Shown one piece after another: positions 3,759-22,969 of a stretch of DNA of 24,000 nt. The stretch is from Coriobacteriaceae bacterium (lineage in GTDB: Bacteria > Actinomycetota > Coriobacteriia > Coriobacteriales > UMGS124). The stretch's first letter is position 1, and the number at the start of each line of letters is the position of its first letter. Both the position numbers and the translations under genes were made by a program. A model generated the notes under the pieces. It saw only the letters and a list, made by a program, of their open reading frames with translations, made no database searches and was not told the DNA's origin. The stretch lies in NCBI GenBank assembly GCA_019420325.1, contig JAHZHK010000002.1, positions 10,102-34,101 of the forward strand, read 5' to 3'.

Positions 3759-4676
3759 ATGGCGCATATAGGAGAGTCGAACAATGCTGACGGGGAGGGA
3801 ACCGTGCATCGAATTCTAAAGAAGGAGCTTCTGGCGCAGGGCACGTGGCTCATGCGCGTGGAAGCGCCGGCCGTTGCGGCCAAGGCGCAGGCTGGTCAGT
3901 TCTTCCTGGTACGCGCACGTGAGGGAGCCGAGCGTGTGCCGTTTACGTTCTGTGATTGGAACGCCCAAGAGGGCTGGATCGAGTTTGTGTTCCTCGTGGT
4001 GGGATACACGACCGAGCTGCTTACCACCTTCGAGGAGGGCCAGGAGCTGCTCGACGTGACGGGTCCTTTGGGCAACCCCTCCAACATGGAGGGCGTCGCC
4101 GGGCAGCGTTGGGCTGTGGCCGGCGGCGGCGTGGGCCTGGCGGCGGCGTACCCCGTGGCACGCGCGCTGGCACAGGCCGGCGCCCAGGTGAGCGCCATCG
4201 TGGCTGCTCGTAGCCGTGACTTGCTTGTGCTTGAGGACAAGTTTCGCGCAATCGAGGGTGCCGATATCATCGTTGTGACCGACGACGGCTCCTACGGCGA
4301 GAAGGGTTTTGCCACCGGTCCCTTGGAGCGCCTGGCCAAGGCCGGCGAGATCGACCATGCCTTTGTGGTGGGCCCCGTTCCCATGATGGGCGCCTGCGTG
4401 AAAGCTGTGTCGGCCTACGACGTGCCTGTGACCGTGTCACTCAACCCGGTCATGCTCGACGGTACAGGCATGTGCGGCGGTTGCCGCGTGGTGGTGGACG
4501 GCCAGGTTCGCTTTGCCTGCATCGACGGCGTCGACTTCGACGGCGCCAAGGTTGACTGGGCCGACCTGCGCAGCCGCCTGCGCACGTTTGGCGCACAGGA
4601 GAAGGAATCGCTCGAGCTTGCCCATGCCTGCCGCATGCAGGCGGCGGCCGATGCCCTGGAAGGAGCCGCACGATGA
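3759..4676 (+). CDS. nfnA: NfnA / PyrK-like FAD- and [2Fe-2S]-binding oxidoreductase subunit (sulfide dehydrogenase beta / ferredoxin-NADP reductase small partner)
   Basis: Ferredoxin-reductase-type FAD/NAD module with a C-terminal Cys cluster GMCGGCRV...FACIDG. Its stop overlaps the next start (ATGA at 4673-4676). An alternative GTG start at 3804 has a better SD (GGAGG 3794-3798) and would give the family-typical N-terminus VHRILKKE. Confidence 0.8.
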   Translation: MAHIGESNNADGEGTVHRILKKELLAQGTWLMRVEAPAVAAKAQAGQFFLVRAREGAERVPFTFCDWNAQEGWIEFVFLVVGYTTELLTTFEEGQELLDVTGPLGNPSNMEGVAGQRWAVAGGGVGLAAAYPVARALAQAGAQVSAIVAARSRDLLVLEDKFRAIEGADIIVVTDDGSYGEKGFATGPLERLAKAGEIDHAFVVGPVPMMGACVKAVSAYDVPVTVSLNPVMLDGTGMCGGCRVVVDGQVRFACIDGVDFDGAKVDWADLRSRLRTFGAQEKESLELAHACRMQAAADALEGAAR

Positions 4677-6133
4677 GCCAGCTGCAAGAGGGCGCCGCTG
4701 TGCCCGAGCGTTACAAGCCCAATGCGAAGGCGCCCCGCACGCCTGCACGCGAGGTCGCCCCGCAGGAGCGTGTGCAGGGCTTTATGCCCGTTGACCTGGG
4801 ATATACCGATGACGACGCCGTGCTCGAGGCGAACCGCTGCCTGGATTGCGCCCGCCCTTTGTGCGTGCAGGGCTGTCCTGTGGGCGTCGATATCCCCCAT
4901 TTCATCGAGGCCATCCGTGCCCGCGACTGGGAGCGCGGCCTGGACATCGTGCGCCGCGACAACCTGCTGCCGAGCGTGTGTGGCCGCGTGTGCCCGCAGG
5001 AGACGCAGTGCGAAGGTGCCTGCGTGCTCGCCAAGCGCGGCAACCCCATCGCCATCGGCCAGCTCGAGCGCTTCCTGGGCGACAAGGCCGACGAGCTTGC
5101 GGGCGGGGCTGCGGCCGATTCTGGCGCGTCTGAGGCCAACGCTGCGGGCGTTGCCCCGCGTCGCGTCGCGGTTGTGGGCAGCGGTCCTGCCGGCATTACC
5201 TGCGCCTTTGAGCTTGCGCGCGCTGGCGTAGAGGTCACCATCTTCGACTCGCTGTTCCGTTTGGGCGGCGTGCTTGTGTACGGCATCCCGGAGTTCCGCC
5301 TTCCCAAGGCCGTCGTTGCCCGCGAGCTTGAGGCCCTGGAGGCGCTCGGTGTGCGCGTGGAGACCAACATGGTCGCCGGCCGTACCTTCACAGTCGACGA
5401 GCTGCTCGGCGAGCGCGGCTTCGACGCCGTGTTCATCGGCGTGGGCGCGGGCCTTCCCAAGATGCTTGGTGTGCCTGGCGAGAACGCATGCGGCGTGATG
5501 TGCGCCAACGAGTACCTCACGCGCGTGAACCTCATGCGTGCCTATGACTTCCCGCAGGTAGATACTCCTGTGCGTCCTGGCAAGAACGTCGTCGTCTTCG
5601 GCGGCGGCAACGTCGCCATGGACGCGGCCCGCACGGCGCTTCGTCTGGGAGCCGAGACGGTCACGCTGTGCTATCGCCGTACCGAGGCCGAGATGCCCGC
5701 TCGCAGGGCCGAGATCGAGCATGCCAAGGCTGAGGGCGTGCGTCTCATGGAGCTCGTGGGTCCGCTTGGCTTCGAGGCTGACGAAGCCGGCAACGTGTGC
5801 GCCGCCCGCCTGCAGCGCATGGAGCTTGGCGAGCCTGACGAGGGTGGCCGTCGCCGCCCCGTGGCGCTTACGGGGCAGGACGCCATCGCGCAGATCCCCT
5901 GCGACCTGGCCATCACGGCCATCGGCACGAACGCCTGCCCGCTCGTGGGGGCCATGGCTCCCAGTGTCGCGCTCAACCGCTGGGGCTACATCGAGGCCGA
6001 CGAGGACGGGCGCACCAGCCAGCCGGGCGTGTGGGCCGGCGGCGACATCGTGACCGGCGCGGCTACCGTCATCCTTGCGATGGGTGCCGGAAAGCGCAGT
6101 GCGCACAGCATTCTCGAGTCCTTTGAGGCCTAG
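4673..6133 (+). CDS. nfnB: NfnB / GltD-family NADPH-dependent oxidoreductase (glutamate synthase small-chain-like, 2x[4Fe-4S] + FAD)
   Basis: N-terminal Fe-S motifs CLDCARPLCVQGCP and CGRVCPQETQCEGAC. Dinucleotide folds VAVVGSGPAG and VVFGGGNVAMD. C-terminal VWAGGD. Translationally coupled to the upstream subunit. Confidence 0.85.
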   Translation: MSQLQEGAAVPERYKPNAKAPRTPAREVAPQERVQGFMPVDLGYTDDDAVLEANRCLDCARPLCVQGCPVGVDIPHFIEAIRARDWERGLDIVRRDNLLPSVCGRVCPQETQCEGACVLAKRGNPIAIGQLERFLGDKADELAGGAAADSGASEANAAGVAPRRVAVVGSGPAGITCAFELARAGVEVTIFDSLFRLGGVLVYGIPEFRLPKAVVARELEALEALGVRVETNMVAGRTFTVDELLGERGFDAVFIGVGAGLPKMLGVPGENACGVMCANEYLTRVNLMRAYDFPQVDTPVRPGKNVVVFGGGNVAMDAARTALRLGAETVTLCYRRTEAEMPARRAEIEHAKAEGVRLMELVGPLGFEADEAGNVCAARLQRMELGEPDEGGRRRPVALTGQDAIAQIPCDLAITAIGTNACPLVGAMAPSVALNRWGYIEADEDGRTSQPGVWAGGDIVTGAATVILAMGAGKRSAHSILESFEA

Positions 6134-12062: not shown

Positions 12063-12368
12063 TCATACGAGCCGAGCGTAGTCCTGCGTTTGGTGAAAGA
12101 TGTGGGCGATAACGATTTTGTCGTTGGTGACTTTGTACAAGGCTACGTAACGCTTGATGTGGATGGGTCGATATCCGAGTGCGGCGAGTTCGGGTAGATG
12201 CGACAGCGGATGCATGAGGGGCATCTCACATACCAGGGTTATCTGGTGGTCGAACTCGTTCATGAATTCGTTTGCGGCCGCAGGGCTAAGCAGGGTTGAG
12301 GCCAAATATGAGACTATGGACTCGTATTCGCGCTGCGCCTCGCGGGTGATGACTGCCTTATGGGTCAT
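12063..12368 (-). CDS. type II toxin, RelE/ParE superfamily
   Basis: 101 aa from MTHKAVITREAQREYESIVSYL... to ...YVALYKVTNDKIVIAHIFHQTQDY, the ParE/RelE-typical C-terminus. The start overlaps the antitoxin stop by 11 nt. Confidence 0.8.
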   Translation of the reverse strand: MTHKAVITREAQREYESIVSYLASTLLSPAAANEFMNEFDHQITLVCEMPLMHPLSHLPELAALGYRPIHIKRYVALYKVTNDKIVIAHIFHQTQDYARLV

Positions 12369-12624
12369 AGCGCTGACGGATCGAGGCAGAGAAGGCCGAG
12401 AAGTCCGTGTAATCACCCGAGGCAATTTCGGTTTCGGCAAGCAACATGCGAGAGAGAAGTTTTGCCTTAGCGACTTCCTCGCGCTGCGCCTCGTATTCTT
12501 CGTTGCTCAGGCAATGCATCGCGCTGTATCCATTGCGCGTCACTGTGACATCGCGCTCCCGTTCAACGAGAGCGGCAAACGCCGCGGTATCTTTCATATC
12601 TCGAACCGGTACACAAACAGGCAT
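12358..12624 (-). CDS. type II antitoxin, Phd/YefM-like
   Basis: 88 aa. The N-terminal VPVRDMKDTAAFAALVERERDVTVTRNGYSAMHCLSNEEYEA fits the Phd/YefM fold pattern. Strong SD AAGGAGG lies 6 nt upstream. The gene sits upstream of and overlaps the toxin. Confidence 0.7.
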   Translation of the reverse strand: MPVCVPVRDMKDTAAFAALVERERDVTVTRNGYSAMHCLSNEEYEAQREEVAKAKLLSRMLLAETEIASGDYTDFSAFSASIRQRYDP

Positions 12625-12666: not shown

Positions 12667-14145
12667 CTATTTCCTCTCCACCAAATCAAGAAGCTCCTGC
12701 TTGGAGTGGACATCGAGCTTAGTGTAGATGTGCTTGACGTGGCCACGCACGGTGTTTTCGGAAATGAGGAACGTCTCGGCGATGCGGGTCTTGCTGTGGC
12801 CGCGCACGAGCAGCTCAAGCACTTCCTCCTCGCGTGCGGTGAGGCTTCCCTTGCGGGCGAGCTGGTGGCAGCGGGTGCGCAGGTTGTCGGCCGAGGAGCT
12901 GGCGGTGGGTGCGGCGGCCTCGCGCTTCTCCAGGTCGCGCTGGGTGGCAAGCGCGCGCATCTCGGGGGAGTCGTCCTCGGCCTGGTTCAGTTCGGAGAAG
13001 ATGAGCCGGTTGCCAAGGGAGCGGTCGTCGAGCAGTACAAGAGCCACGACCACGAGCGCCCAAGTGGCAATCGAGGTGATGAGCGGCTCGATGGGACTCT
13101 CAACCATGAGCAGGCCCGCCGCGCTTCCTGCGGCAAAGGGCAAGGCGTAGGCGAGCCAGCCTGCCGCGTACACGGCCAATGCCGGGTAGGAGCTGTGCCT
13201 GGCCACATCGGCCACAGCCATGAACAGGAAGAACACCACGAGCAGGGCATGGGCGGTGCGCACGAGCGCAAAGAGCACGGCATGGGCGCCGGTGCCTGCG
13301 AGGAACGGCTCGAACACAAGCACGGTGACCATGAGGATGAGAATGAGTCGCCAGGTGCGGCCAAAATCGATGCCGCGGCCTGCGACGCTGACCCACCAGA
13401 TGAAGACAAAGGCGAGCAGTATCTCGGTGCCGTGGTTTACAAGCACGGAAAGCACGTAGGGGTTGGGTGTGGACTCGAGGATGGCCGTGCGGATGATGCC
13501 GATGGTGAAGCTGAATGCCACCACGCTTACCAATGCACGCGACAGGGACCCCACGGTGCGGGCGTTGTAGTACTGCTCGGGCTTGCTTGCGGGTGGCAGG
13601 TTGCGCGCCGCATGGCGCATGCAGGCGAATGTGGCGAAGGGCAGGCACACGAACACGGGGGCCGCCACGGCGCCGGGCAAAAAGTCGATGACCGTTTTGC
13701 AGGCAGAGCCCAGCGCCATCGTGCAGAAGAGCAGGGGAACCGAAAAGGCGAGGTCGAGTTTGGCATACACCTGGATCCAGCGGCCGTAGGCCCAGGCAAC
13801 GCCCACCCCTCCCAAGGTTGCGCCCACTGCGGTGGCCACGGCGGGCGCAGTGGGCAGCTCGACCGATAGTGCCACGCCGCCCAACGCCATGAGGGTCGCC
13901 GACACAAGGTCGCGTGCGAGCATTCTGCGGTCCCCGGGCAGGTCGAAACGCTCACCCGCTTTGCCTGCACGCCAGGCACCGATGCCTATCGCCACGAGCG
14001 TCACGCTCATGGCCGAGTACAGCACGGCCGTGACGGAGATGCCGCCGCTCTCAAGGAAGCGGTGGGTGGAGCAGTAGATCCACATGTGTACAAACGCCAG
14101 GCCCAAAAGGGACGGGCGAAGGTTTTTTAGGAAGTTTGCAAGCAT
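12667..14145 (-). CDS. polytopic-membrane LuxR/GerE-family transcriptional regulator (regulator 1)
   Basis: About 10-12 hydrophobic helices by eye over the first ~400 aa. A C-terminal HTH follows: LTAREEEVLELLVRGHSKTRIAETFLISENTVRGHVKHIYTKLDVHSKQELLDL. SD GGAGG lies 4 nt upstream of the ATG. Confidence 0.85.
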   Translation of the reverse strand: MLANFLKNLRPSLLGLAFVHMWIYCSTHRFLESGGISVTAVLYSAMSVTLVAIGIGAWRAGKAGERFDLPGDRRMLARDLVSATLMALGGVALSVELPTAPAVATAVGATLGGVGVAWAYGRWIQVYAKLDLAFSVPLLFCTMALGSACKTVIDFLPGAVAAPVFVCLPFATFACMRHAARNLPPASKPEQYYNARTVGSLSRALVSVVAFSFTIGIIRTAILESTPNPYVLSVLVNHGTEILLAFVFIWWVSVAGRGIDFGRTWRLILILMVTVLVFEPFLAGTGAHAVLFALVRTAHALLVVFFLFMAVADVARHSSYPALAVYAAGWLAYALPFAAGSAAGLLMVESPIEPLITSIATWALVVVALVLLDDRSLGNRLIFSELNQAEDDSPEMRALATQRDLEKREAAAPTASSSADNLRTRCHQLARKGSLTAREEEVLELLVRGHSKTRIAETFLISENTVRGHVKHIYTKLDVHSKQELLDLVERK

Positions 14146-14232
14146 GGTTCCTCCAGTGAGGCGGCAGTGCGCAAAGCGGTGAGCGAACAGCCCCTTTGGG
14201 GTTGTCTCGGAGTGTCGCGGGGCTTATTCGCG

Positions 14233-14247
14233 CCTGTACATAGTACT
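14233..14247. promoter_or_regulatory. imperfect palindrome CTGTAC-ATA-GTACTG in the divergent intergenic region (candidate operator)
   Basis: 5/6 symmetric half-sites with a 3-nt centre. It lies 88 nt from the regulator start and 226 nt upstream of the flavoprotein start. Confidence 0.25.
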
Positions 14248-14404
14248 GCACGTCTCGCGCCATTGACGCGAAAAACGATGGGTCACTCCACTCCAATCTG
14301 GGGTGTATACAAGCACTTTTACCTGCACAAACAAAGAAAGCCGCAAAGTGGGGGGCGAATGGGTTGCGCTGAGCGCGCTAGTGTTCGAGCTGTTCAACGC
14401 AAGG

Positions 14405-14459
14405 CACACGCCAAGCGAGGACGCATCAGCCACCGCTACAAAGCAAGGCATGACAGAAA
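14405..14459 (+). promoter_or_regulatory. two copies of the GCAAGGCA motif in the flavoprotein-1 leader
   Basis: AACGCAAGGCACACGC (14405-14420) and CAAAGCAAGGCA (14448-14459). The same motif recurs upstream of flavoprotein 2 and of LuxR regulator 2. Confidence 0.35.
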
Positions 14460-14472
14460 AGGGGTAATCGCT

Positions 14473-16212
14473 ATGCAAAGCAACGCAATGTCCCGCCGCT
14501 CGTTCGTTCAGACCGCAGGCGCCGCAGCCGCCGGCCTCGCCGCCGCAGCCGCCGTGCTGCCGGGTGCCAACCCGCAGACGGCCCACGCTGCCGTCGCCGT
14601 TCCCGAGACGTGGGACTATGAGTGCGACGTCGCAGTCGTGGGCACCGGTACGGTTCTGACCGGTGCCGGCAAGGCTGCCGCCGAGGGCAACCGCGTCATC
14701 ATCATTGAGGCCGAAGGATTTATTGGTGGTACCACCTCCATCTCCAACGGTCAGACTTGGATGCCCCTCAACTCTACCGCCATGGCGCAGGGCCTGGACA
14801 ACTACGACGACGCCCTGGCCTACATCACCGCTACCGCCGCTGGCAAGTCTACGCCCGAGATTCTCGAGGCCTTTCTGAAGTACGGCCCCGAGGCCATCGA
14901 CTTCCTGGCCGAAACAGCCGACCTCACTTGGGAGATCAGCCCCCGCGTCGACTATCATATCGACGTCTTCCCCGGCGCCAAGGACCAGACCCGCACCATC
15001 GCCCCTGTTGGCAAGCAGTCAACTGAGGCCGGCCAGATGACGGGCGCCTTCGGCACCACCTCTTCGGGCTCCTATGTCACCGACCCGCTGTGCGACGGCG
15101 TCGTGAACAAGTACGGCGGCGAGCTGTTGCTCAACACCCGCGCCATGCACCTCATCACCCGTGTCAACGACGAGGGTGTGACCGAGGTCTGTGGCGTGCA
15201 GGCCCAGGCCGAGGACGGTTCCATGATCAACATCAAGGCCACCAAGGGCGTCATCCTGGGCGCGGGCGGCTTTGGCTGGAACGACGACATGAAGAAGCGC
15301 TACATGGAGCTGCCGGCCAACCGCACCATGGAAGTCTCCACCTGCGTGGGCGACGGCATCCTCATGGGTCAGGCCGTGGGCGCCGACGTCACGCTCATGC
15401 AGTACGCCTGGGGCCAGGTCGTCTGCGTCAACCCCGAGGACATGCCCTACCACGAGTGGTGCGAGAAGCCCACTGAGATCAACCACTTCGGCCTGGGCAC
15501 CTTCTATGGCCTTATGTGCAAGCCGGGTTCCTGCGTGCTCAACAAGTTCGGCCGCCGCTTCATGGACGAGGCCGTTGACTACGACTCCCTCTACCATGGC
15601 TTCTGGGGCCGCGACCTAGGCGCCAACCAGACCGAGGAGGGAGGCACTTACGGCACGAGCTGGACGAACTGCCCGGCCTTCTACATCTGCGACTCCACTG
15701 TTGCCGATGCCGAGAACTCCGTTATGCGCGACTCCGACGGCAACATCGTGAGCTGGGTCGCCTATCAGGCCGACACCATCGAGGAGCTCCTCGACCAGAT
15801 TCCCTGGCGTGACGACTACGCCCGCCAGAAGGCCTCCAAGACCATCGAGGAGTACAACGAGAACTGCAGGAACGACATCGATCCCGAGTTCCACCGCGGC
15901 GAGACCACGTGGGATCAGGGCGGCACGAGCCGTCCCGAGAAGTCGCTGGCACCCATCGAGGTCGGCCCCTTCTACGGCATCATCTGCGAGCCCTATCCCA
16001 TGTGCACCAAGGGTGGCCTGCGCGTGAACGAGAACGCTGAGGTCCTCTCCGTCACCGGTGAGGTCATCCCCCGTCTGTACGCATCCGGCAACAACTCCGG
16101 CATCGGCGGCCCGGGCCTCTTCTACAACGGCGCCGGCGGAACCCTGGGCCCTGGCTTCACGTTTGGCTACATCGCCGGCATGAACGCCGCCCAGCTGACT
16201 CCCTGGGAGTAG
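14473..16212 (+). CDS. Tat-exported FAD-dependent oxidoreductase, fumarate-reductase/KstD superfamily (KstD-like, Cys-rich)
   Basis: Twin-arginine signal MQSNAMSRRSFVQTAGAAAAGLAAAAAVLPGANPQTAHA/A. FAD fold DVAVVGTGTVLTGAGKAAAEGNRVIIIEAEGFIGG. C-terminal block YASGNNSGIGGPGLFYNGAGGTLGPGFTFGYIAG. Start set at ATG 14473; the track start 14167 adds a non-coding-looking 102-aa leader. Confidence 0.85.
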   Translation: MQSNAMSRRSFVQTAGAAAAGLAAAAAVLPGANPQTAHAAVAVPETWDYECDVAVVGTGTVLTGAGKAAAEGNRVIIIEAEGFIGGTTSISNGQTWMPLNSTAMAQGLDNYDDALAYITATAAGKSTPEILEAFLKYGPEAIDFLAETADLTWEISPRVDYHIDVFPGAKDQTRTIAPVGKQSTEAGQMTGAFGTTSSGSYVTDPLCDGVVNKYGGELLLNTRAMHLITRVNDEGVTEVCGVQAQAEDGSMINIKATKGVILGAGGFGWNDDMKKRYMELPANRTMEVSTCVGDGILMGQAVGADVTLMQYAWGQVVCVNPEDMPYHEWCEKPTEINHFGLGTFYGLMCKPGSCVLNKFGRRFMDEAVDYDSLYHGFWGRDLGANQTEEGGTYGTSWTNCPAFYICDSTVADAENSVMRDSDGNIVSWVAYQADTIEELLDQIPWRDDYARQKASKTIEEYNENCRNDIDPEFHRGETTWDQGGTSRPEKSLAPIEVGPFYGIICEPYPMCTKGGLRVNENAEVLSVTGEVIPRLYASGNNSGIGGPGLFYNGAGGTLGPGFTFGYIAGMNAAQLTPWE

Positions 16213-16236: not shown

Positions 16237-16270
16237 GGGCGCTTCTCCTTCGGGAGGGGCGCCTTTTCTC
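16237..16270 (+). terminator. rho-independent terminator after flavoprotein 1
   Basis: 11-bp stem GGCGCTTCTCC / GGAGGGGCGCC (two G-U pairs), TTCG loop, then TTTTCTC. Confidence 0.75.
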
Positions 16271-19339: not shown

Positions 19340-21151
19340 TTACGCCAGGGCGTTGGCAGCGGCGGACTGGCCGGCGATGCGGCCGAAGACGATGATGTCG
19401 GTGAAGGAGTTGCCGCCCAGACGGTTGCCGCCCTGGACGCCACCCGTGCACTCGCCGGCAGCGAAGAGGTTGGCGATGGGGGTGCCGTCCTCCTTGGTCA
19501 CCTGAGCGTCGGTGTTGATGGCCAAGCCACCCATGGTGTAGTGAATCGTGGGGATGCGCTTGGAGGCGTAGAAGGGGCCGTCCTCGACCTTGTCGCCCAG
19601 GAGCTTCTTGCCGGGGTCGACCATGGTGTCCTCGCCGGCGTCGATGACCGCGTTGTAGCCGTCGATGGTCTCCTCGAGGGTGGCGGGGTCGAGCTCGATC
19701 TGCTCGGCCAGGTCGGCGATGGTGTCGGCCTGGAAGCTGTGGCCGGTGGCCACGAGGTCGGCGATCTCGTCGAGACGGTCGTCGGTGATGTCGGTGGAGT
19801 CGACGATGAGCCACATCTCGTCGTTGGTCTGCTCAAGGATGGCGTTGGCGATCTCGTCGCGGCGGCCGTCCTCGGCGGTGAAGCGCTTGGCCTCGTCGTT
19901 CACCATGACGTAGTCCTCAACGCCCAGCCAGTTGCCCACGAAGGTGGCCACGCCGCCGTTCTGGGGGTCGCCGAGCGGGTGGATCTGCACGAGCTCCATG
20001 TTCTTGAGGCCGGCACCGATCTCCTGAGCCATGGGGATGGCGTCGCCGGTGGCGCTCACGTTGCAGGAGGAGGGCATGGTCTCGGTCACGCGGGTGTCGT
20101 ACTGCATGGCGAGCTGGGGGTTGCGGGCATAGCCGCCGGTAGCCATGACAACGGACTTGGCGGTGACGGTAACAGGGTTGCCGGAGGAGACGCGCGAGCC
20201 CGTGACGCCCGTGACGTTGCCGTCGGCGTCGGTGGAGATGGCCTCAACCTTGGCGTCGGTGTAGTACTTCACGCCCAGGCGAGTGGCGCAGTCCATGAGG
20301 CAGCTCACGTAGTAGGCGCCGCCCTGCTGGCCCATCTTCTGAACCTTGATGGAGTGGCCGCGCTGCCACTTGCCACCGATTGCCGTGAAGACCTCGTCGT
20401 TGAAGACCAGGCCGTGGGCCTCCATCCAGTGAATGCCGTCGAGGGCGTTGTCGGCCAGGATATGCACGAGCTCGGGGTCGGCCTTCTCGTCGCCGCCCTC
20501 GTAGGTGTCCTCAAAGAACTTGTCGGCGCTGTCCTCGATGCCCATGGGGTCCTGGCGCTCGGGGTCGGGGGAGTTGAAGGTACCCTCGCCGCAGTTGGTG
20601 TTGCCGCCGTAGATGTCCATCTTGTCGAGCAGGATGACCTTGGCGCCAGCCTCGGCAGCGGAGACGGCAGCGGCCATGCCAGCGCCGCCCGTACCCACGA
20701 TCACGACGTCGCACTCCTCCTCGATGGCAGGCGCGGGCTCAAGGCCGCTCTCGGCGTCCTCGAGGGCGTCAACGTCGGCACCGGCCTGCTCGTAGGCGTC
20801 GGCCAGGGCAGACTTAAAGCCGAAGGAAGTGAGGGTGGCGCCGGTCACGGAGTCGAGGTTGAGCGTCTGGGACTCAAGGGCGCGCTGCGTCAGGATCTCG
20901 ATGGCAGCGTCGCCGATGTTCTTGGACTCGTCGGAGCGGGCGACGATGGCGCAGAGCTTGCCGTCCTTGAACGTGGCCTCAAGATCGATGTCGCCGTTGC
21001 GGCCGGTGCCGGTGGCGGCGTAGGTGCCGTCGACGATGGAGGAAGCGGCCTGATCGGCCTTGGCGAGCTGGACGCCGCCCATGGCTGCGACGGCGGCGAG
21101 GCCGGCTGCGCCGGCGACGAACTGACGACGGGTGGAAGTAGCGATAAACAT
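19340..21151 (-). CDS. Tat-exported flavin reductase: FMN-binding domain + FAD-dependent fumarate/urocanate-reductase-like domain
   Basis: Tat signal [36 protein letters not shown]_bind-type domain with flavinylation motif [11 protein letters not shown]. Canonical [30 protein letters not shown]. Catalytic-type blocks [27 protein letters not shown] and [10 protein letters not shown]. Start at ATG 21151 (AAAGGGG SD). Confidence 0.88.
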
Positions 21152-21227
21152 GTGGACCCCTTTCGACACTGACTTTGACGTGCATTGCCTGATGGATGTC
21201 GCTTGGCTCGGCGCCTGTGCTGCGGTC

Positions 21228-21288
21228 GCCTTGCACCCCCTGCCTTGCGTTCGGGGTGCGTGTGCCTCAAGCGCTGCGCCTTGCTTTG
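21228..21288 (-). promoter_or_regulatory. three copies of the GCAAGGC(A/G) motif in the flavoprotein-2 leader
   Basis: The minus strand reads CAAAGCAAGGCG (21288-21277), AGGCACACGC (21267-21258), AACGCAAGGCA (21251-21241) and GTGCAAGGCG (GCAAGGC = 21234-21228). Confidence 0.35.
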
Positions 21289-21424
21289 CTGACTCGTACA
21301 ATGCGCCGAAAACGCCGGTGCCGAAATTGCACGAACGGTGTGGTTGTTGGTTTTGCCTCTCGCACACCTTTGGTGTGAGTCTCATCATGCCTGGTAGATT
21401 GATGTGTCAAGCCAAAAGGTGGCG

Positions 21425-21469
21425 AAAAAGAAATCCGCCGCTCCCTCGTGGTGCGAAGGGGCGGCGGAT
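21425..21469 (-). terminator. rho-independent terminator after LuxR regulator 2
   Basis: The minus strand reads ATCCGCCGC ... GCGGCGGAT (perfect 9 bp, with an inner CCCT/AGGG helix) followed by TTCTTTTT, about 70 nt after the regulator stop. Confidence 0.75.
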
Positions 21470-21538
21470 GCGTGCAGGGGGTCGCGCAGGGTTCGAAACG
21501 GGTCGCAAGACCCCGATATGTGTCGTATTTTCGAGCGC

Positions 21539-22969
21539 CTATTTTTGACTTTCGGCCATCTGATCCATGAGCAGATCGAGCAACTCTTGCTTGGAATGGA
21601 CGCCCACTTTCGTGTACAGGTGGCGGGCGTGGCTGCGCACCGTGTTCTCCGAGATGCATAGGCTCTCTGCGATGTAGCCCTTCGAGCGGCCCTTGCAGAT
21701 GAGTTCCATGACCTCAAGCTCGCGGTCGGTGAGGCCGGAGTCGTGCCCGAGGCGCTTGCATGCGTCGCCGAGCGCGTCGAAAAGCGCCGGGGGCACGGGA
21801 GGCTTCTCGAGGTCGGCAAAGACGCGTCCCGCTGAGAAATCGCGCTCGTCGAGCATGAAGATGCTGACCATGGCAAGCAGGTACACGATGACGGAGACGA
21901 GCGAGGTCATGGCAACGCTCGTGGTGAAGAGACCGCCGAGCGCGCGTCCCACGGGGAAGGGCAGGCAGTACGCCGTCCAGCCCATGGCGAACACGGCCAA
22001 GGGGTTGATGGTGCTGCGGTGAGCCACGTCGGCGAGGAACGCCCACAGCAGCATGACCACGAGCGTCTGCCCCACAGCCACGAAGACGAGTGCCCAGCCC
22101 GAGAAGGCACGGCCGAAAAGGGGCAGTGCGAGCACGCCCGTCGCCGTGAACACGAGCGTGGCGCGCCATAGGTCGGAGAAGTGCAGCGAGCGGCGCTTGA
22201 CCAGGACAACCCAGATGATGCCGGCGGCGGTGGCGACCTCGAGCAGGTGGTGGACGAGTGAGAGTGCGGCCTTGGGGGCGGGGTCGGCTTCCACATGAAT
22301 GCCCTGCATGATGCCGATGACCAGACCGTATGCGGCGATGCCGAAGAGGATTTTGATGTAGGGGCGCTGCCTGCGTGGGTCGACCAGCACCTCGACCGGC
22401 TTGGCCGGGGGCTGCGCCGCCATGGCGCGCCCGCACAGGATGAACGACGCAAACGGAAGAACCGAGCATACTATGGCGGCCCACGCGTCGGGTATGAGGT
22501 CAATGGGGATTTTGACGAGGCTGCCTATGAGCATTGCCCCGAAGATGCAGGCAAGCGCGTCGCGCGTCTCAAGCGCCGCGTAGAAGAACGACCATTGCAT
22601 GTACGTCCAGCCCATGCCGATGCCGCAGAATACTGCCGCTGCCTGGAGTATCTGTTCGGCGGGAAGTCCTTGGGGCAACGGAAGGACGAGCGCGAGGGTT
22701 CCCAGTGCCATGAGCGTGGCGAGGGGCCAGTTGATCCACGAGAGGGTCTTTGAGGTGGGCTTTGCCAGAAGGGCCCCTATCGTGAGGCCAAGCGTGAAGA
22801 GCGTGAGCGAGATGTAGATGGTGACGGTGAGCGTCATCTGGGGGTGCGCCGCGCTGGCGAGGTGGCAGGCGTCCCAGATCCACACGTGGCCGCACAGGAT
22901 GCCGAAGTAGCACAGGCGCGGGTGCTGCAGTGTGTGGGGAAGAGCTTCGTGGTCTGGAATGAGCGACAT
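21539..22969 (-). CDS. polytopic-membrane LuxR/GerE-family transcriptional regulator (regulator 2, paralogue of 12667-14145)
   Basis: About 10-12 hydrophobic helices followed by LTDRELEVMELICKGRSKGYIAESLCISENTVRSHARHLYTKVGVHSKQELLDL. It shares membrane-domain blocks with regulator 1 (ADVA-H/R-S, GW-x-AY-x-LPF). SD GAGGG lies 6 nt upstream. Confidence 0.85.
   Translation of the reverse strand: MSLIPDHEALPHTLQHPRLCYFGILCGHVWIWDACHLASAAHPQMTLTVTIYISLTLFTLGLTIGALLAKPTSKTLSWINWPLATLMALGTLALVLPLPQGLPAEQILQAAAVFCGIGMGWTYMQWSFFYAALETRDALACIFGAMLIGSLVKIPIDLIPDAWAAIVCSVLPFASFILCGRAMAAQPPAKPVEVLVDPRRQRPYIKILFGIAAYGLVIGIMQGIHVEADPAPKAALSLVHHLLEVATAAGIIWVVLVKRRSLHFSDLWRATLVFTATGVLALPLFGRAFSGWALVFVAVGQTLVVMLLWAFLADVAHRSTINPLAVFAMGWTAYCLPFPVGRALGGLFTTSVAMTSLVSVIVYLLAMVSIFMLDERDFSAGRVFADLEKPPVPPALFDALGDACKRLGHDSGLTDRELEVMELICKGRSKGYIAESLCISENTVRSHARHLYTKVGVHSKQELLDLLMDQMAESQK

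Follow-up and report, generated by a model that had tools for sequence, protein, structure and literature searches.

A divergent regulator–flavoprotein gene pair with a 3-ketosteroid dehydrogenase-type active site forms a probable substrate-induced enone reductase module in a Coriobacteriaceae bacterium

We analysed a 24,000-nt stretch of DNA (the window; contig JAHZHK010000002.1, positions 10,102 to 34,101, G+C ~63%) from a Coriobacteriaceae bacterium and focused on two divergent genes at its positions 12667–16212, here called module 1. One encodes a 492-aa LuxR-type regulator with 12 predicted transmembrane (TM) helices, and the other a 579-aa FAD flavoprotein with a predicted twin-arginine translocation (Tat) signal and an active site resembling those of the 3-ketosteroid dehydrogenases (KstDs) and cyclohexanone dehydrogenase (CDH). 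The two genes probably constitute a substrate-induced module whose extracytoplasmic FAD enzyme reduces a C=C bond beside a ring carbonyl, a reading built on the gene structure, domain content, export signal, fold class, conserved catalytic residues and conserved regulator–enzyme pairing. An earlier note on this DNA had described two genes of these lengths diverging over 327 nt, and its coordinates were confirmed. The features of the flavoprotein gene are listed below with the equivalent residues of KstD1, CDH and the flavocytochrome c3 (Fcc3) of Shewanella.

14473..16212, plus strand: gene for the flavoprotein of KstD/cyclohexanone dehydrogenase type, predicted to be Tat-exported, 579 aa and stop (PF00890, NCBIfam, PDB and Foldseek)
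14473..14592, plus strand: predicted twin-arginine signal peptide (MQSNAMSRRSFV...AHA/A, about 40 aa; TIGR01409), signal-peptidase I type
14953..14955, plus strand: codon of Tyr161, equivalent to KstD1 Tyr119 and CDH Tyr195; its DY(H/Y) motif aligns with PDYY of 4c3x
15580..15582, plus strand: codon of Tyr370, equivalent to KstD1 Tyr318 and CDH Tyr376 (catalytic base/acid), at the Fcc3 Arg402 position
16123..16137, plus strand: codons of Tyr551 to Gly555 (YNGAG), equivalent to KstD1 Tyr487/Gly491 and CDH Tyr570/Gly574, with Tyr551 at the Fcc3 Arg545 position

Residues 52–557 of the flavoprotein match PF00890 (FAD_binding_2) over model positions 1–413/414 with 154.7 bits against a cut-off of 20.4 (E = 5.5e-45). 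Among the NCBIfam models the KstD equivalogs score best, with 238.7 bits for NF009478 (cut-off 789) and 223.8 bits for NF005882 (cut-off 788). Models of FAD-dependent oxidoreductases or FAD-binding proteins of unassigned function (PRK06134, PRK12843 and others) range from 204 to 172 bits and are interleaved with the ring-ketone desaturases ChcC1 and ChcC2 (4-oxocyclohexanecarboxylate dehydrogenases; 189 and 167 bits). Flavocytochrome c (TIGR01813) is outscored at 116.2 bits, below its cut-off of 285.45, and the vinylphenol reductase VprA model gives a partial match of 89 bits. The best sequence matches in the PDB are 7p18 (AcmB, 3.9e-40) and 4c3x (KstD1, 4.4e-34). Foldseek searches with an AlphaFold model (40 homologues; pLDDT 84.9, pTM 0.87) returned 7p18, 8am3/8am6/8am8, 4c3x, 8joj and 8jbz at ranks 1–11 (E 2e-41 to 3e-38, TM-score 0.72–0.82), with urocanate reductase from rank 12 and Fcc3 from rank 15. 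In sequence and predicted fold, the flavoprotein thus appears nearest to KstD and CDH. Orthology to KstD was rejected on the basis of 25–26% identity to the solved KstDs and a score of 239 bits against a cut-off of 789. Membership of the flavocytochrome c or soluble fumarate reductase family was likewise rejected, as the score is below the cut-off, the catalytic residues are replaced, the protein has a single domain and the window holds no cytochrome gene.

An exhaustive search of 1.8 billion representative proteins provided a set of 139 relatives. Orthologues fall in only one 50%-identity cluster, the next relatives being 35–44% identical, and the group is marked by clade-specific insertions at about residues 181–200, 320–345 and 383–395. 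A 90%-identity cluster of 298 members, drawn from metagenome and metagenome-assembled genome (MAG) data only, carries the gene intact, and the 87%-identical orthologues among the matches listed come from Coriobacteriaceae MAGs. The nearest named protein is a 'FAD-dependent oxidoreductase [Arabiibacter massiliensis]' with 78% identity. No orthologue with an assigned substrate was found in protein databases or in the literature on OsrA, KstD/Eggerthella, gut steroid reductases, 21-dehydroxylation, RER and Cgr2, consistent with the orphan status that the earlier note had given the protein.

The active site was examined by HMMER alignment to 4c3x, whose chain numbering equals the native numbering + 20. 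All four KstD1 residues have counterparts: Tyr119 aligns with Y161 (VDYH), Tyr318 with Y370 (VDYD), and Tyr487 and Gly491 with Y551 and G555 (FYNGAGG), so that a previously noted resemblance to the KstD Tyr/Gly block extends to the whole tetrad. The tetrad is invariant in nine homologues down to 35% identity (alignment A1). Y370, Y551 and G555 are each conserved in at least 90% of the 139 relatives, 118 of which keep the YYYG combination, and at least 59 of the 50%-identity clusters among them combine a Tat export signal with the KstD tetrad. The catalytic residues of CDH are Tyr195, Tyr376, Tyr570 and Gly574 (PMC10966990); these were matched by motif and spacing, with the equivalents of Tyr161 and Tyr370 lying outside the aligned stretches. 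The Fcc3 residues were traced by a transitive alignment from the flavoprotein through P0038, a fumarate-reductase-like protein that aligns residue-for-residue with Fcc3, to Shewanella Fcc3 (1d4c). The His of HPT (His365) is replaced by Gln315, Arg402 by Tyr370, the second His of HHTMGG (His504) by Cys511 and the Arg of NRLGG (Arg545) by Tyr551, which bears out a by-eye reading that every fumarate-reductase position had changed. Judged from sequence, the full Tyr/Tyr/Tyr/Gly set makes a ring C=C bond in conjugation with a carbonyl a likelier site of reaction than an enoate.

In the mechanism that we propose, the 12-TM LuxR protein would sense an extracellular small molecule from within the membrane and activate the divergent promoter, with a conserved block at 14290–14400 as the candidate operator. 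The FAD enzyme would fold with its cofactor in the cytoplasm and then be exported by the Tat route to the outer face of the membrane. Tyr551-OH and the backbone NH of Gly555 would polarise the substrate carbonyl, FAD N5 would exchange a hydride with the β carbon, and Tyr370, assisted by Tyr161, would exchange a proton with the α carbon. The outcome would be KstD chemistry run in reverse: a C=C bond in conjugation with a ring ketone or a lactone would be reduced in a respiratory-type reaction, with electrons from a donor encoded elsewhere in the genome. Candidate substrates would include a 3-oxo-Δ1/Δ4 steroid, a bile-acid intermediate, a flavone, an isoflavone, a chalcone, a coumarin, a butenolide or some other cyclic enone. 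Ligand sensing, the direction in which the reaction runs, the class of substrate and the source of electrons are the parts of this scheme that we infer.

Several points weigh against enone reduction. The flavoprotein is only ~25% identical to KstDs and lies far below every curated NCBIfam cut-off. Its clade-specific loops at ~185–196, 326–341 and 384–393 are modelled at pLDDT <50, so the substrate pocket is not readable from the model, and these poorly modelled, pocket-forming insertions keep the substrate class from being narrowed further. No cytochrome, ApbE or quinol-dehydrogenase/NrfCD-type gene was found in the whole 24-kb window, widening the earlier note's remark that none is adjacent and leaving the module 1 flavoprotein with no electron-transfer partner (cytochrome, FMN-binding domain or NrfCD-type module) there. 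The protein was set beside Cgr2, RER and CrdA–D by their published descriptions and not by sequence. Finally, CirA of H. filiformis has Tyr at the Arg545 and Arg402 positions (Y469/Y634; bioRxiv 10.1101/2022.12.26.521950), and because the cinnamate reductases of this organism, which one study characterised along with E. lenta enzymes, share Tyr residues, the Tyr set alone is compatible with a carboxylate or phenylpropanoid substrate.

This last point leads to a serious rival, in which the same enzyme class acts on a phenylpropanoid-type alkene (a hydroxycinnamate, a stilbene such as resveratrol, or vinylphenol) as a Cir/Crd/RER-like polyphenol reductase, and the electron sink is a para-phenol or carboxylate instead of a ring ketone. 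The H. filiformis cinnamate reductases and their reductase clades carry Tyr at the Arg545-equivalent position (bioRxiv 10.1101/2022.12.26.521950). Of the flavin reductases of Eggerthella lenta and its relatives, several act on cinnamates and one on resveratrol, and clades 2–4 of these enzymes have Tyr for Arg at the position equivalent to Y551. The reductase cited for such substrates also reduces the enones apigenin and isoliquiritigenin, and the partial match to VprA fits the same picture. However, the scores of the KstD and ring-ketone desaturase models are two- to threefold those of VprA or flavocytochrome c, and ketone α,β-desaturases have as their signature the full Tyr/Tyr/Tyr/Gly set, Tyr119 equivalent included. 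No protein at 45–75% identity was found and no match bore an E. lenta name, so the flavoprotein is not an RER orthologue by the 59% criterion of the RER paper. We therefore consider a phenylpropanoid substrate unlikely. The earlier proposal of an ene/keto-type reductase for a non-carboxylate substrate agrees in its first part with the KstD-like site, whereas a non-carboxylate substrate does not follow from the loss of Arg and His, given that cinnamate reductases carry Tyr.

A second rival keeps the KstD-like chemistry and turns it in the oxidative direction. The enzyme would then be an exported α,β-desaturase acting beside a ring ketone, for example on Δ1-/Δ4-3-oxo steroids or bile acids, and would pass electrons to the membrane electron-transport chain. 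The structurally characterised members with the tetrad, KstD1, AcmB and CDH, are all dehydrogenases; CDH has a Tat signal and its host respires anaerobically, and Eggerthellaceae oxidise steroid and bile-acid hydroxyl groups. Nevertheless, the exported members of the superfamily characterised in Eggerthellaceae (Cgr2, UrdA and CrdC/CrdD) are reductases, their substrates serve E. lenta as electron acceptors, and KstD chemistry is reversible, AcmB catalysing the reverse 1,2-hydrogenation (PMC9736390). Enone reduction is favoured for these three reasons. Desaturation would also need an acceptor of high potential, of which the gut has few, and we regard it as quite unlikely. The reductive direction is nevertheless a more tentative conclusion here than in the earlier note.

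The export signal fits the extracytoplasmic location proposed for the enzyme. The TIGR01409 Tat model scores 18.3 against a cut-off of 16.7 on residues 7–31 (SRRSFV), and a hydrophobic stretch (residues 11–29) is followed by AHA/A, the signal that had been read by eye; Tat export of the flavoprotein is accordingly predicted, and about half of the closest 50%-identity clusters likewise have Tat-like N-termini. A lipobox Cys (LAGC, LVGC or LGGC) is present in the 76–80% orthologues and the 37–43% homologues (P0004, P0007, P0009, P0011 and P0012), whereas the window protein, P0002 and P0077 have Ala at this position. As Ala replaces the lipobox Cys of most Tat-bearing relatives in the window protein and its 87% orthologues, their signal peptides are assigned to the signal-peptidase I type, and a lipid anchor at the outer face of the membrane looks ancestral and lost in this lineage.

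The dinucleotide-binding motif reads GTGTV-L, with the third Gly deleted as the earlier note had observed, and is one residue shorter than the canonical GxGxxG. The canonical motif is missing in 61 of the 72 Tat-bearing relatives compared with 22 of the 67 relatives lacking a Tat-like N-terminus, and the loop is modelled at pLDDT >97. A degenerate or FAD-less protein was therefore rejected as an explanation, and the shortened loop is a signature of the Tat-exported clade rather than a defect.

The mature protein contains 13 Cys residues, all beyond residue 50, a count in agreement with the earlier one. These had prompted the suggestion of an Fe-S cluster, and a third rival accordingly describes a Cgr2-like flavoprotein with a [4Fe-4S] cluster ligated by some of them. 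Cgr2 has 16 Cys and a [4Fe-4S] cluster detected by electron paramagnetic resonance (EPR), and no Fe-S motif is recognisable in either Cgr2 or the flavoprotein. The two proteins also have in common a Tyr/Gly pair, a Tat signal and a PWE C-terminus; Cys makes up 1.64% of residues in Tat-bearing relatives and 0.90% in cytoplasmic ones; and Cys318, Cys330, Cys349 and Cys354 are found within and near a clade-specific insertion modelled with low confidence, where a clade-specific Fe-S site may exist. On the other hand, none of the 13 Cys is the majority residue of its column among the 139 relatives, most columns being V, I, L, A, G or N, chiefly hydrophobic core residues, and only 8–9 are kept in the 76–87% orthologues, no better than overall identity. 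No Cgr1-like cytochrome is adjacent, and the cluster signal of Cgr2 itself survived single Cys-to-Ala mutations, with an occupancy of 0.13–0.25 per monomer. The Cys pattern in these alignments thus argues against a conserved set of Fe-S ligands, the earlier suggestion is not supported, and a cluster-bearing enzyme is improbable.

The regulator gene, the intergenic region and the 3' end of the flavoprotein gene have the following features.

12667..14145, minus strand: gene for the 12-TM LuxR-type regulator, 492 aa (open reading frame (ORF) call), predicted substrate sensor and activator of the adjoining flavoprotein gene
13030..14109, minus strand: membrane domain of the regulator, aa 13–372, 12 predicted helices (hydropathy peaks and loop K/R distribution)
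12682..12846, minus strand: LuxR/GerE helix-turn-helix (HTH) domain for DNA binding, aa 434–488 (PF00196, 57.6 bits against a cut-off of 23.5, E 1e-15)
14146..14472, no strand: divergent intergenic region of 327 nt, taken from the sequence to hold the promoters of both genes
14290..14400, plus strand: conserved non-coding block (core 14290–14360, weaker 14380–14400), candidate promoter/operator of the flavoprotein gene
16237..16264, plus strand: intrinsic-terminator-like hairpin, a 12-bp stem followed by a T-rich tail, 25 nt 3' of the flavoprotein stop

A heuristic hydropathy scan, used in place of a dedicated topology predictor, revealed 12 hydrophobic segments in the regulator, and the alternating K/R-rich loops fit an N-in/C-in topology that would place both the N-terminus and the HTH in the cytoplasm. 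The earlier estimate of about 10–12 helices and a C-terminal LuxR HTH is refined accordingly. The membrane domain is presumed to be the ligand-sensing part. In its HTH, its helix count and its flavin-reductase neighbour, the protein fits the 10–12-TM LuxR family of Coriobacteriia. In E. lenta DSM 2243, 83 LuxR-type regulators are transmembrane proteins, mostly of 10–12 helices (Dong et al. 2022, PMC9734109), and 50 of the 83 are near flavin enzymes (PMC9734109); electron acceptors induce their own flavin reductases in E. lenta. DadR, CadR and HcdR each switch on the reductase gene beside them when the substrate of that reductase is present, as revealed by knockout or deletion and complementation (PMC9734109). 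This work supports the view, already expressed for this locus, that a membrane LuxR protein beside an exported reductase is a substrate-inducible type of module. By analogy, the present regulator would sense a ligand and activate the flavoprotein gene. In the metagenome contig L085 (7546–7674), the regulator aligns as two pieces, codons 1–39 and 40–492, which are 11 nt apart, and the gene is called as 447 aa with an apparent frameshift; this may reflect either a naturally regulator-null strain or an error of assembly.

The pairing of regulator and enzyme is kept in relatives down to 40% identity. In contig L001 a regulator orthologue (66% identity) is directly divergent from an 87%-identical enzyme orthologue, and in L092 a 40%-identical enzyme homologue is also paired with a divergent 492-aa GerE protein. 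In L002 and L080, DUF3990/DUF3791 genes (L002 2543–6000; L080 4546–8000) are inserted between the regulator (62% identity) and the flavoprotein (87% identity). The locus is syntenic in six independent contigs (L084–L089).

Upstream regions were aligned from three lineages with 87%-identical flavoproteins: the window, L001 and L002/L080. In the block at 14290–14360, 9–14 of every 20 bases are identical in all three, compared with 0–6 across most of the remaining upstream region. The block at 14290..14400 contains TACCTGCACAAAC, includes a direct repeat CAA(A/T)nTGGGG at about 14295–14304 and 14344–14353, and is kept next to the flavoprotein gene in L002/L080 despite the extra genes between regulator and enzyme. 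We infer from this conservation that the block is a putative promoter/operator. An 18-nt direct repeat, CGCAAAG(C/T)GG(T/G)G(A/G)GCGAA (83% identity), was also observed, with one copy at 14170–14187 just upstream of the regulator start and the other at 14342–14359, in the conserved block that lies upstream of the flavoprotein gene; the repeat may be an operator common to both genes or may be fortuitous. An RNA element in the long leader was rejected, as there was no Rfam match and the fold was no better than that of shuffled sequences (z = -0.10). A sigma-70 promoter scan of the intergenic region found no match, a result that is uninformative for a high-GC actinobacterium.

The start of the flavoprotein gene is marked by an AAGGGG ribosome-binding site 8 nt 5' of the ATG at 14473. 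A 681-aa ORF from the GTG at 14167 is an artefact, since the orthologues (577–592 aa) share the Met start at 14473, where the ribosome-binding site is located. The terminator-like hairpin indicates a monocistronic flavoprotein gene. The idea of a functional link to the Na+/alanine symporter downstream was discarded because a strong terminator lies between the genes and the symporter is absent beside the 87%-identical orthologues. The flanking genes are housekeeping or unrelated ones, namely an EF-G paralogue, a ParE/Phd-like toxin-antitoxin pair, the Na+/alanine symporter, Ham1 and Dtd. The ParE toxin and Phd/YefM-like antitoxin genes (12063–12624, minus strand) separate the EF-G paralogue from the LuxR gene; L086–L088 have the pair, L085 has a similar form of it and the otherwise syntenic L084 lacks it, which makes it a strain-variable insertion adjoining the module. 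Elsewhere in the window (3759–6133, plus strand), two adjacent genes code for a 305-aa PyrK-like Fe-S/FAD protein and for a 486-aa GltD-like protein that combines Fer4_20 and Pyr_redox_2 domains; together they resemble, in sequence, an NfnAB-type NADH-dependent ferredoxin:NADP oxidoreductase and are unrelated to module 1.

The window also contains a second regulator/flavoprotein module at 19340–22969. Module 2 consists of a 682-aa exported-type flavoprotein with FMN_bind and FAD_binding_2 domains (19340–21388, minus strand) and a 476-aa 12-TM LuxR regulator (21539–22969, minus strand) with 33% identity to the module 1 regulator. At the corresponding position of contig L084 no flavoprotein gene is called and two plus-strand ORFs are found instead, which may represent a disrupted copy.

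The type of module, the regulator family, the divergence of active sites within the superfamily and the existence of numerous Tat-exported proteins with the KstD tetrad are known already. Specific to this locus are the presence of all KstD/CDH catalytic residues within a respiratory-type module of Eggerthellaceae and a distinct orthologue group with three private insertions and no assigned substrate in the sources searched. The finding is thus incremental rather than conceptually new. Eggerthellaceae, among which we count this uncultured gut bacterium, encode tens of exported flavin reductases per genome, only a handful of which have known substrates, and each newly found substrate so far has come from among drugs, dietary compounds and host metabolites (digoxin, urocanate, cinnamates, resveratrol and itaconate); the module gives an unusually specific and cheaply testable prediction. 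A flavonoid or lactone substrate would extend the known repertoire of polyphenol reductases, whereas a steroid or bile-acid enone would imply a new enzyme family in gut steroid metabolism and a ready ligand-responsive regulator/promoter pair. The narrower proposal that the enzyme is a terminal, extracytoplasmic reductase for the ring-A C=C bond of 3-oxo-Δ1/Δ4 steroids or bile-acid intermediates in prevalent uncultured human-gut Eggerthellaceae is distinctly improbable. If true, it would provide the first KstD-family protein acting as a terminal reductase, a ring-reduction route unrelated to the OYE/FadH-type OsrA/OsrB and BaiCD/BaiH, and, in the 12-TM LuxR partner, a membrane steroid sensor. 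OsrA, a gut Δ1-steroid reductase, is an OYE/FadH-type Fe-S flavoenzyme that is not homologous to the flavoprotein.

Comparison with characterised systems places the flavoprotein between catabolic dehydrogenases and gut reductases. It has the two-domain FAD_binding_2 fold of KstD1 from Rhodococcus erythropolis (4C3X/4C3Y) and AcmB from Sterolibacterium denitrificans (7P18), and the GTKGG and EFHRGE motifs are common to all three. Unlike the KstDs, it has a Tat signal, a dinucleotide-binding loop that is one residue shorter and three clade-specific insertions; its gene lies outside any steroid-catabolic cluster, and its host is a strict anaerobe, where the expected role is reductive. CDH of Alicycliphilus denitrificans K601 (8AM3/8AM6/8AM8) exhibits the same Tyr/Tyr/Tyr/Gly active site (Foldseek E about 1e-40, TM-score 0.75–0.80, identity 22–23%). 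Its N-terminal SRRGFL twin-arginine signal aligns with that of the flavoprotein, its local sequence Y-x3-G-x-TLGP is collinear, and it accepts monocyclic ketones and, once engineered, a lactone. In contrast to the flavoprotein, CDH is a Betaproteobacterial catabolic dehydrogenase without a membrane LuxR regulator.

Cgr2, the cardenolide reductase of E. lenta, is likewise a Tat-exported, Cys-rich FAD_binding_2 enzyme without the fumarate-reductase residues; it keeps a Tyr/Gly pair (Y532/G536, corresponding to Y551/G555), reduces a C=C bond in conjugation with the carbonyl of a lactone and has a 12-TM LuxR gene nearby. Unlike the flavoprotein, which has the whole tetrad, Cgr2 lacks three of the five KstD residues, and it is co-encoded with the membrane cytochrome Cgr1, for which the 24-kb window has no cytochrome counterpart. 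The flavoprotein ends in PWE (16201–16209), as do P0041 and Cgr2 (LEPWE, deduced from a published cloning primer), and the spacing between the Tyr/Gly pair and the C-terminus may be that of Cgr2 too; in a comparison made by published description and primer only, this hints at closer kinship to Cgr2. The exported FAD_binding_2 enzymes of the Cir/Crd/RER type are induced by their own substrates, and Tyr replaces the key Arg in several clades. Those with known substrates act on enoates and stilbenes, and none is reported there as KstD-like; the module 2 enzyme looks closer to this group than the module 1 enzyme does. The regulator has the N-terminal 12-helix membrane domain and C-terminal GerE HTH of DadR, CadR and HcdR, which, unlike it, control molybdopterin catechol dehydroxylases and not flavoproteins. 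As in other 10–12-TM LuxR proteins of Coriobacteriia, its gene adjoins and diverges from a flavin reductase gene, and its membrane domain diverges much faster than the accompanying enzyme.

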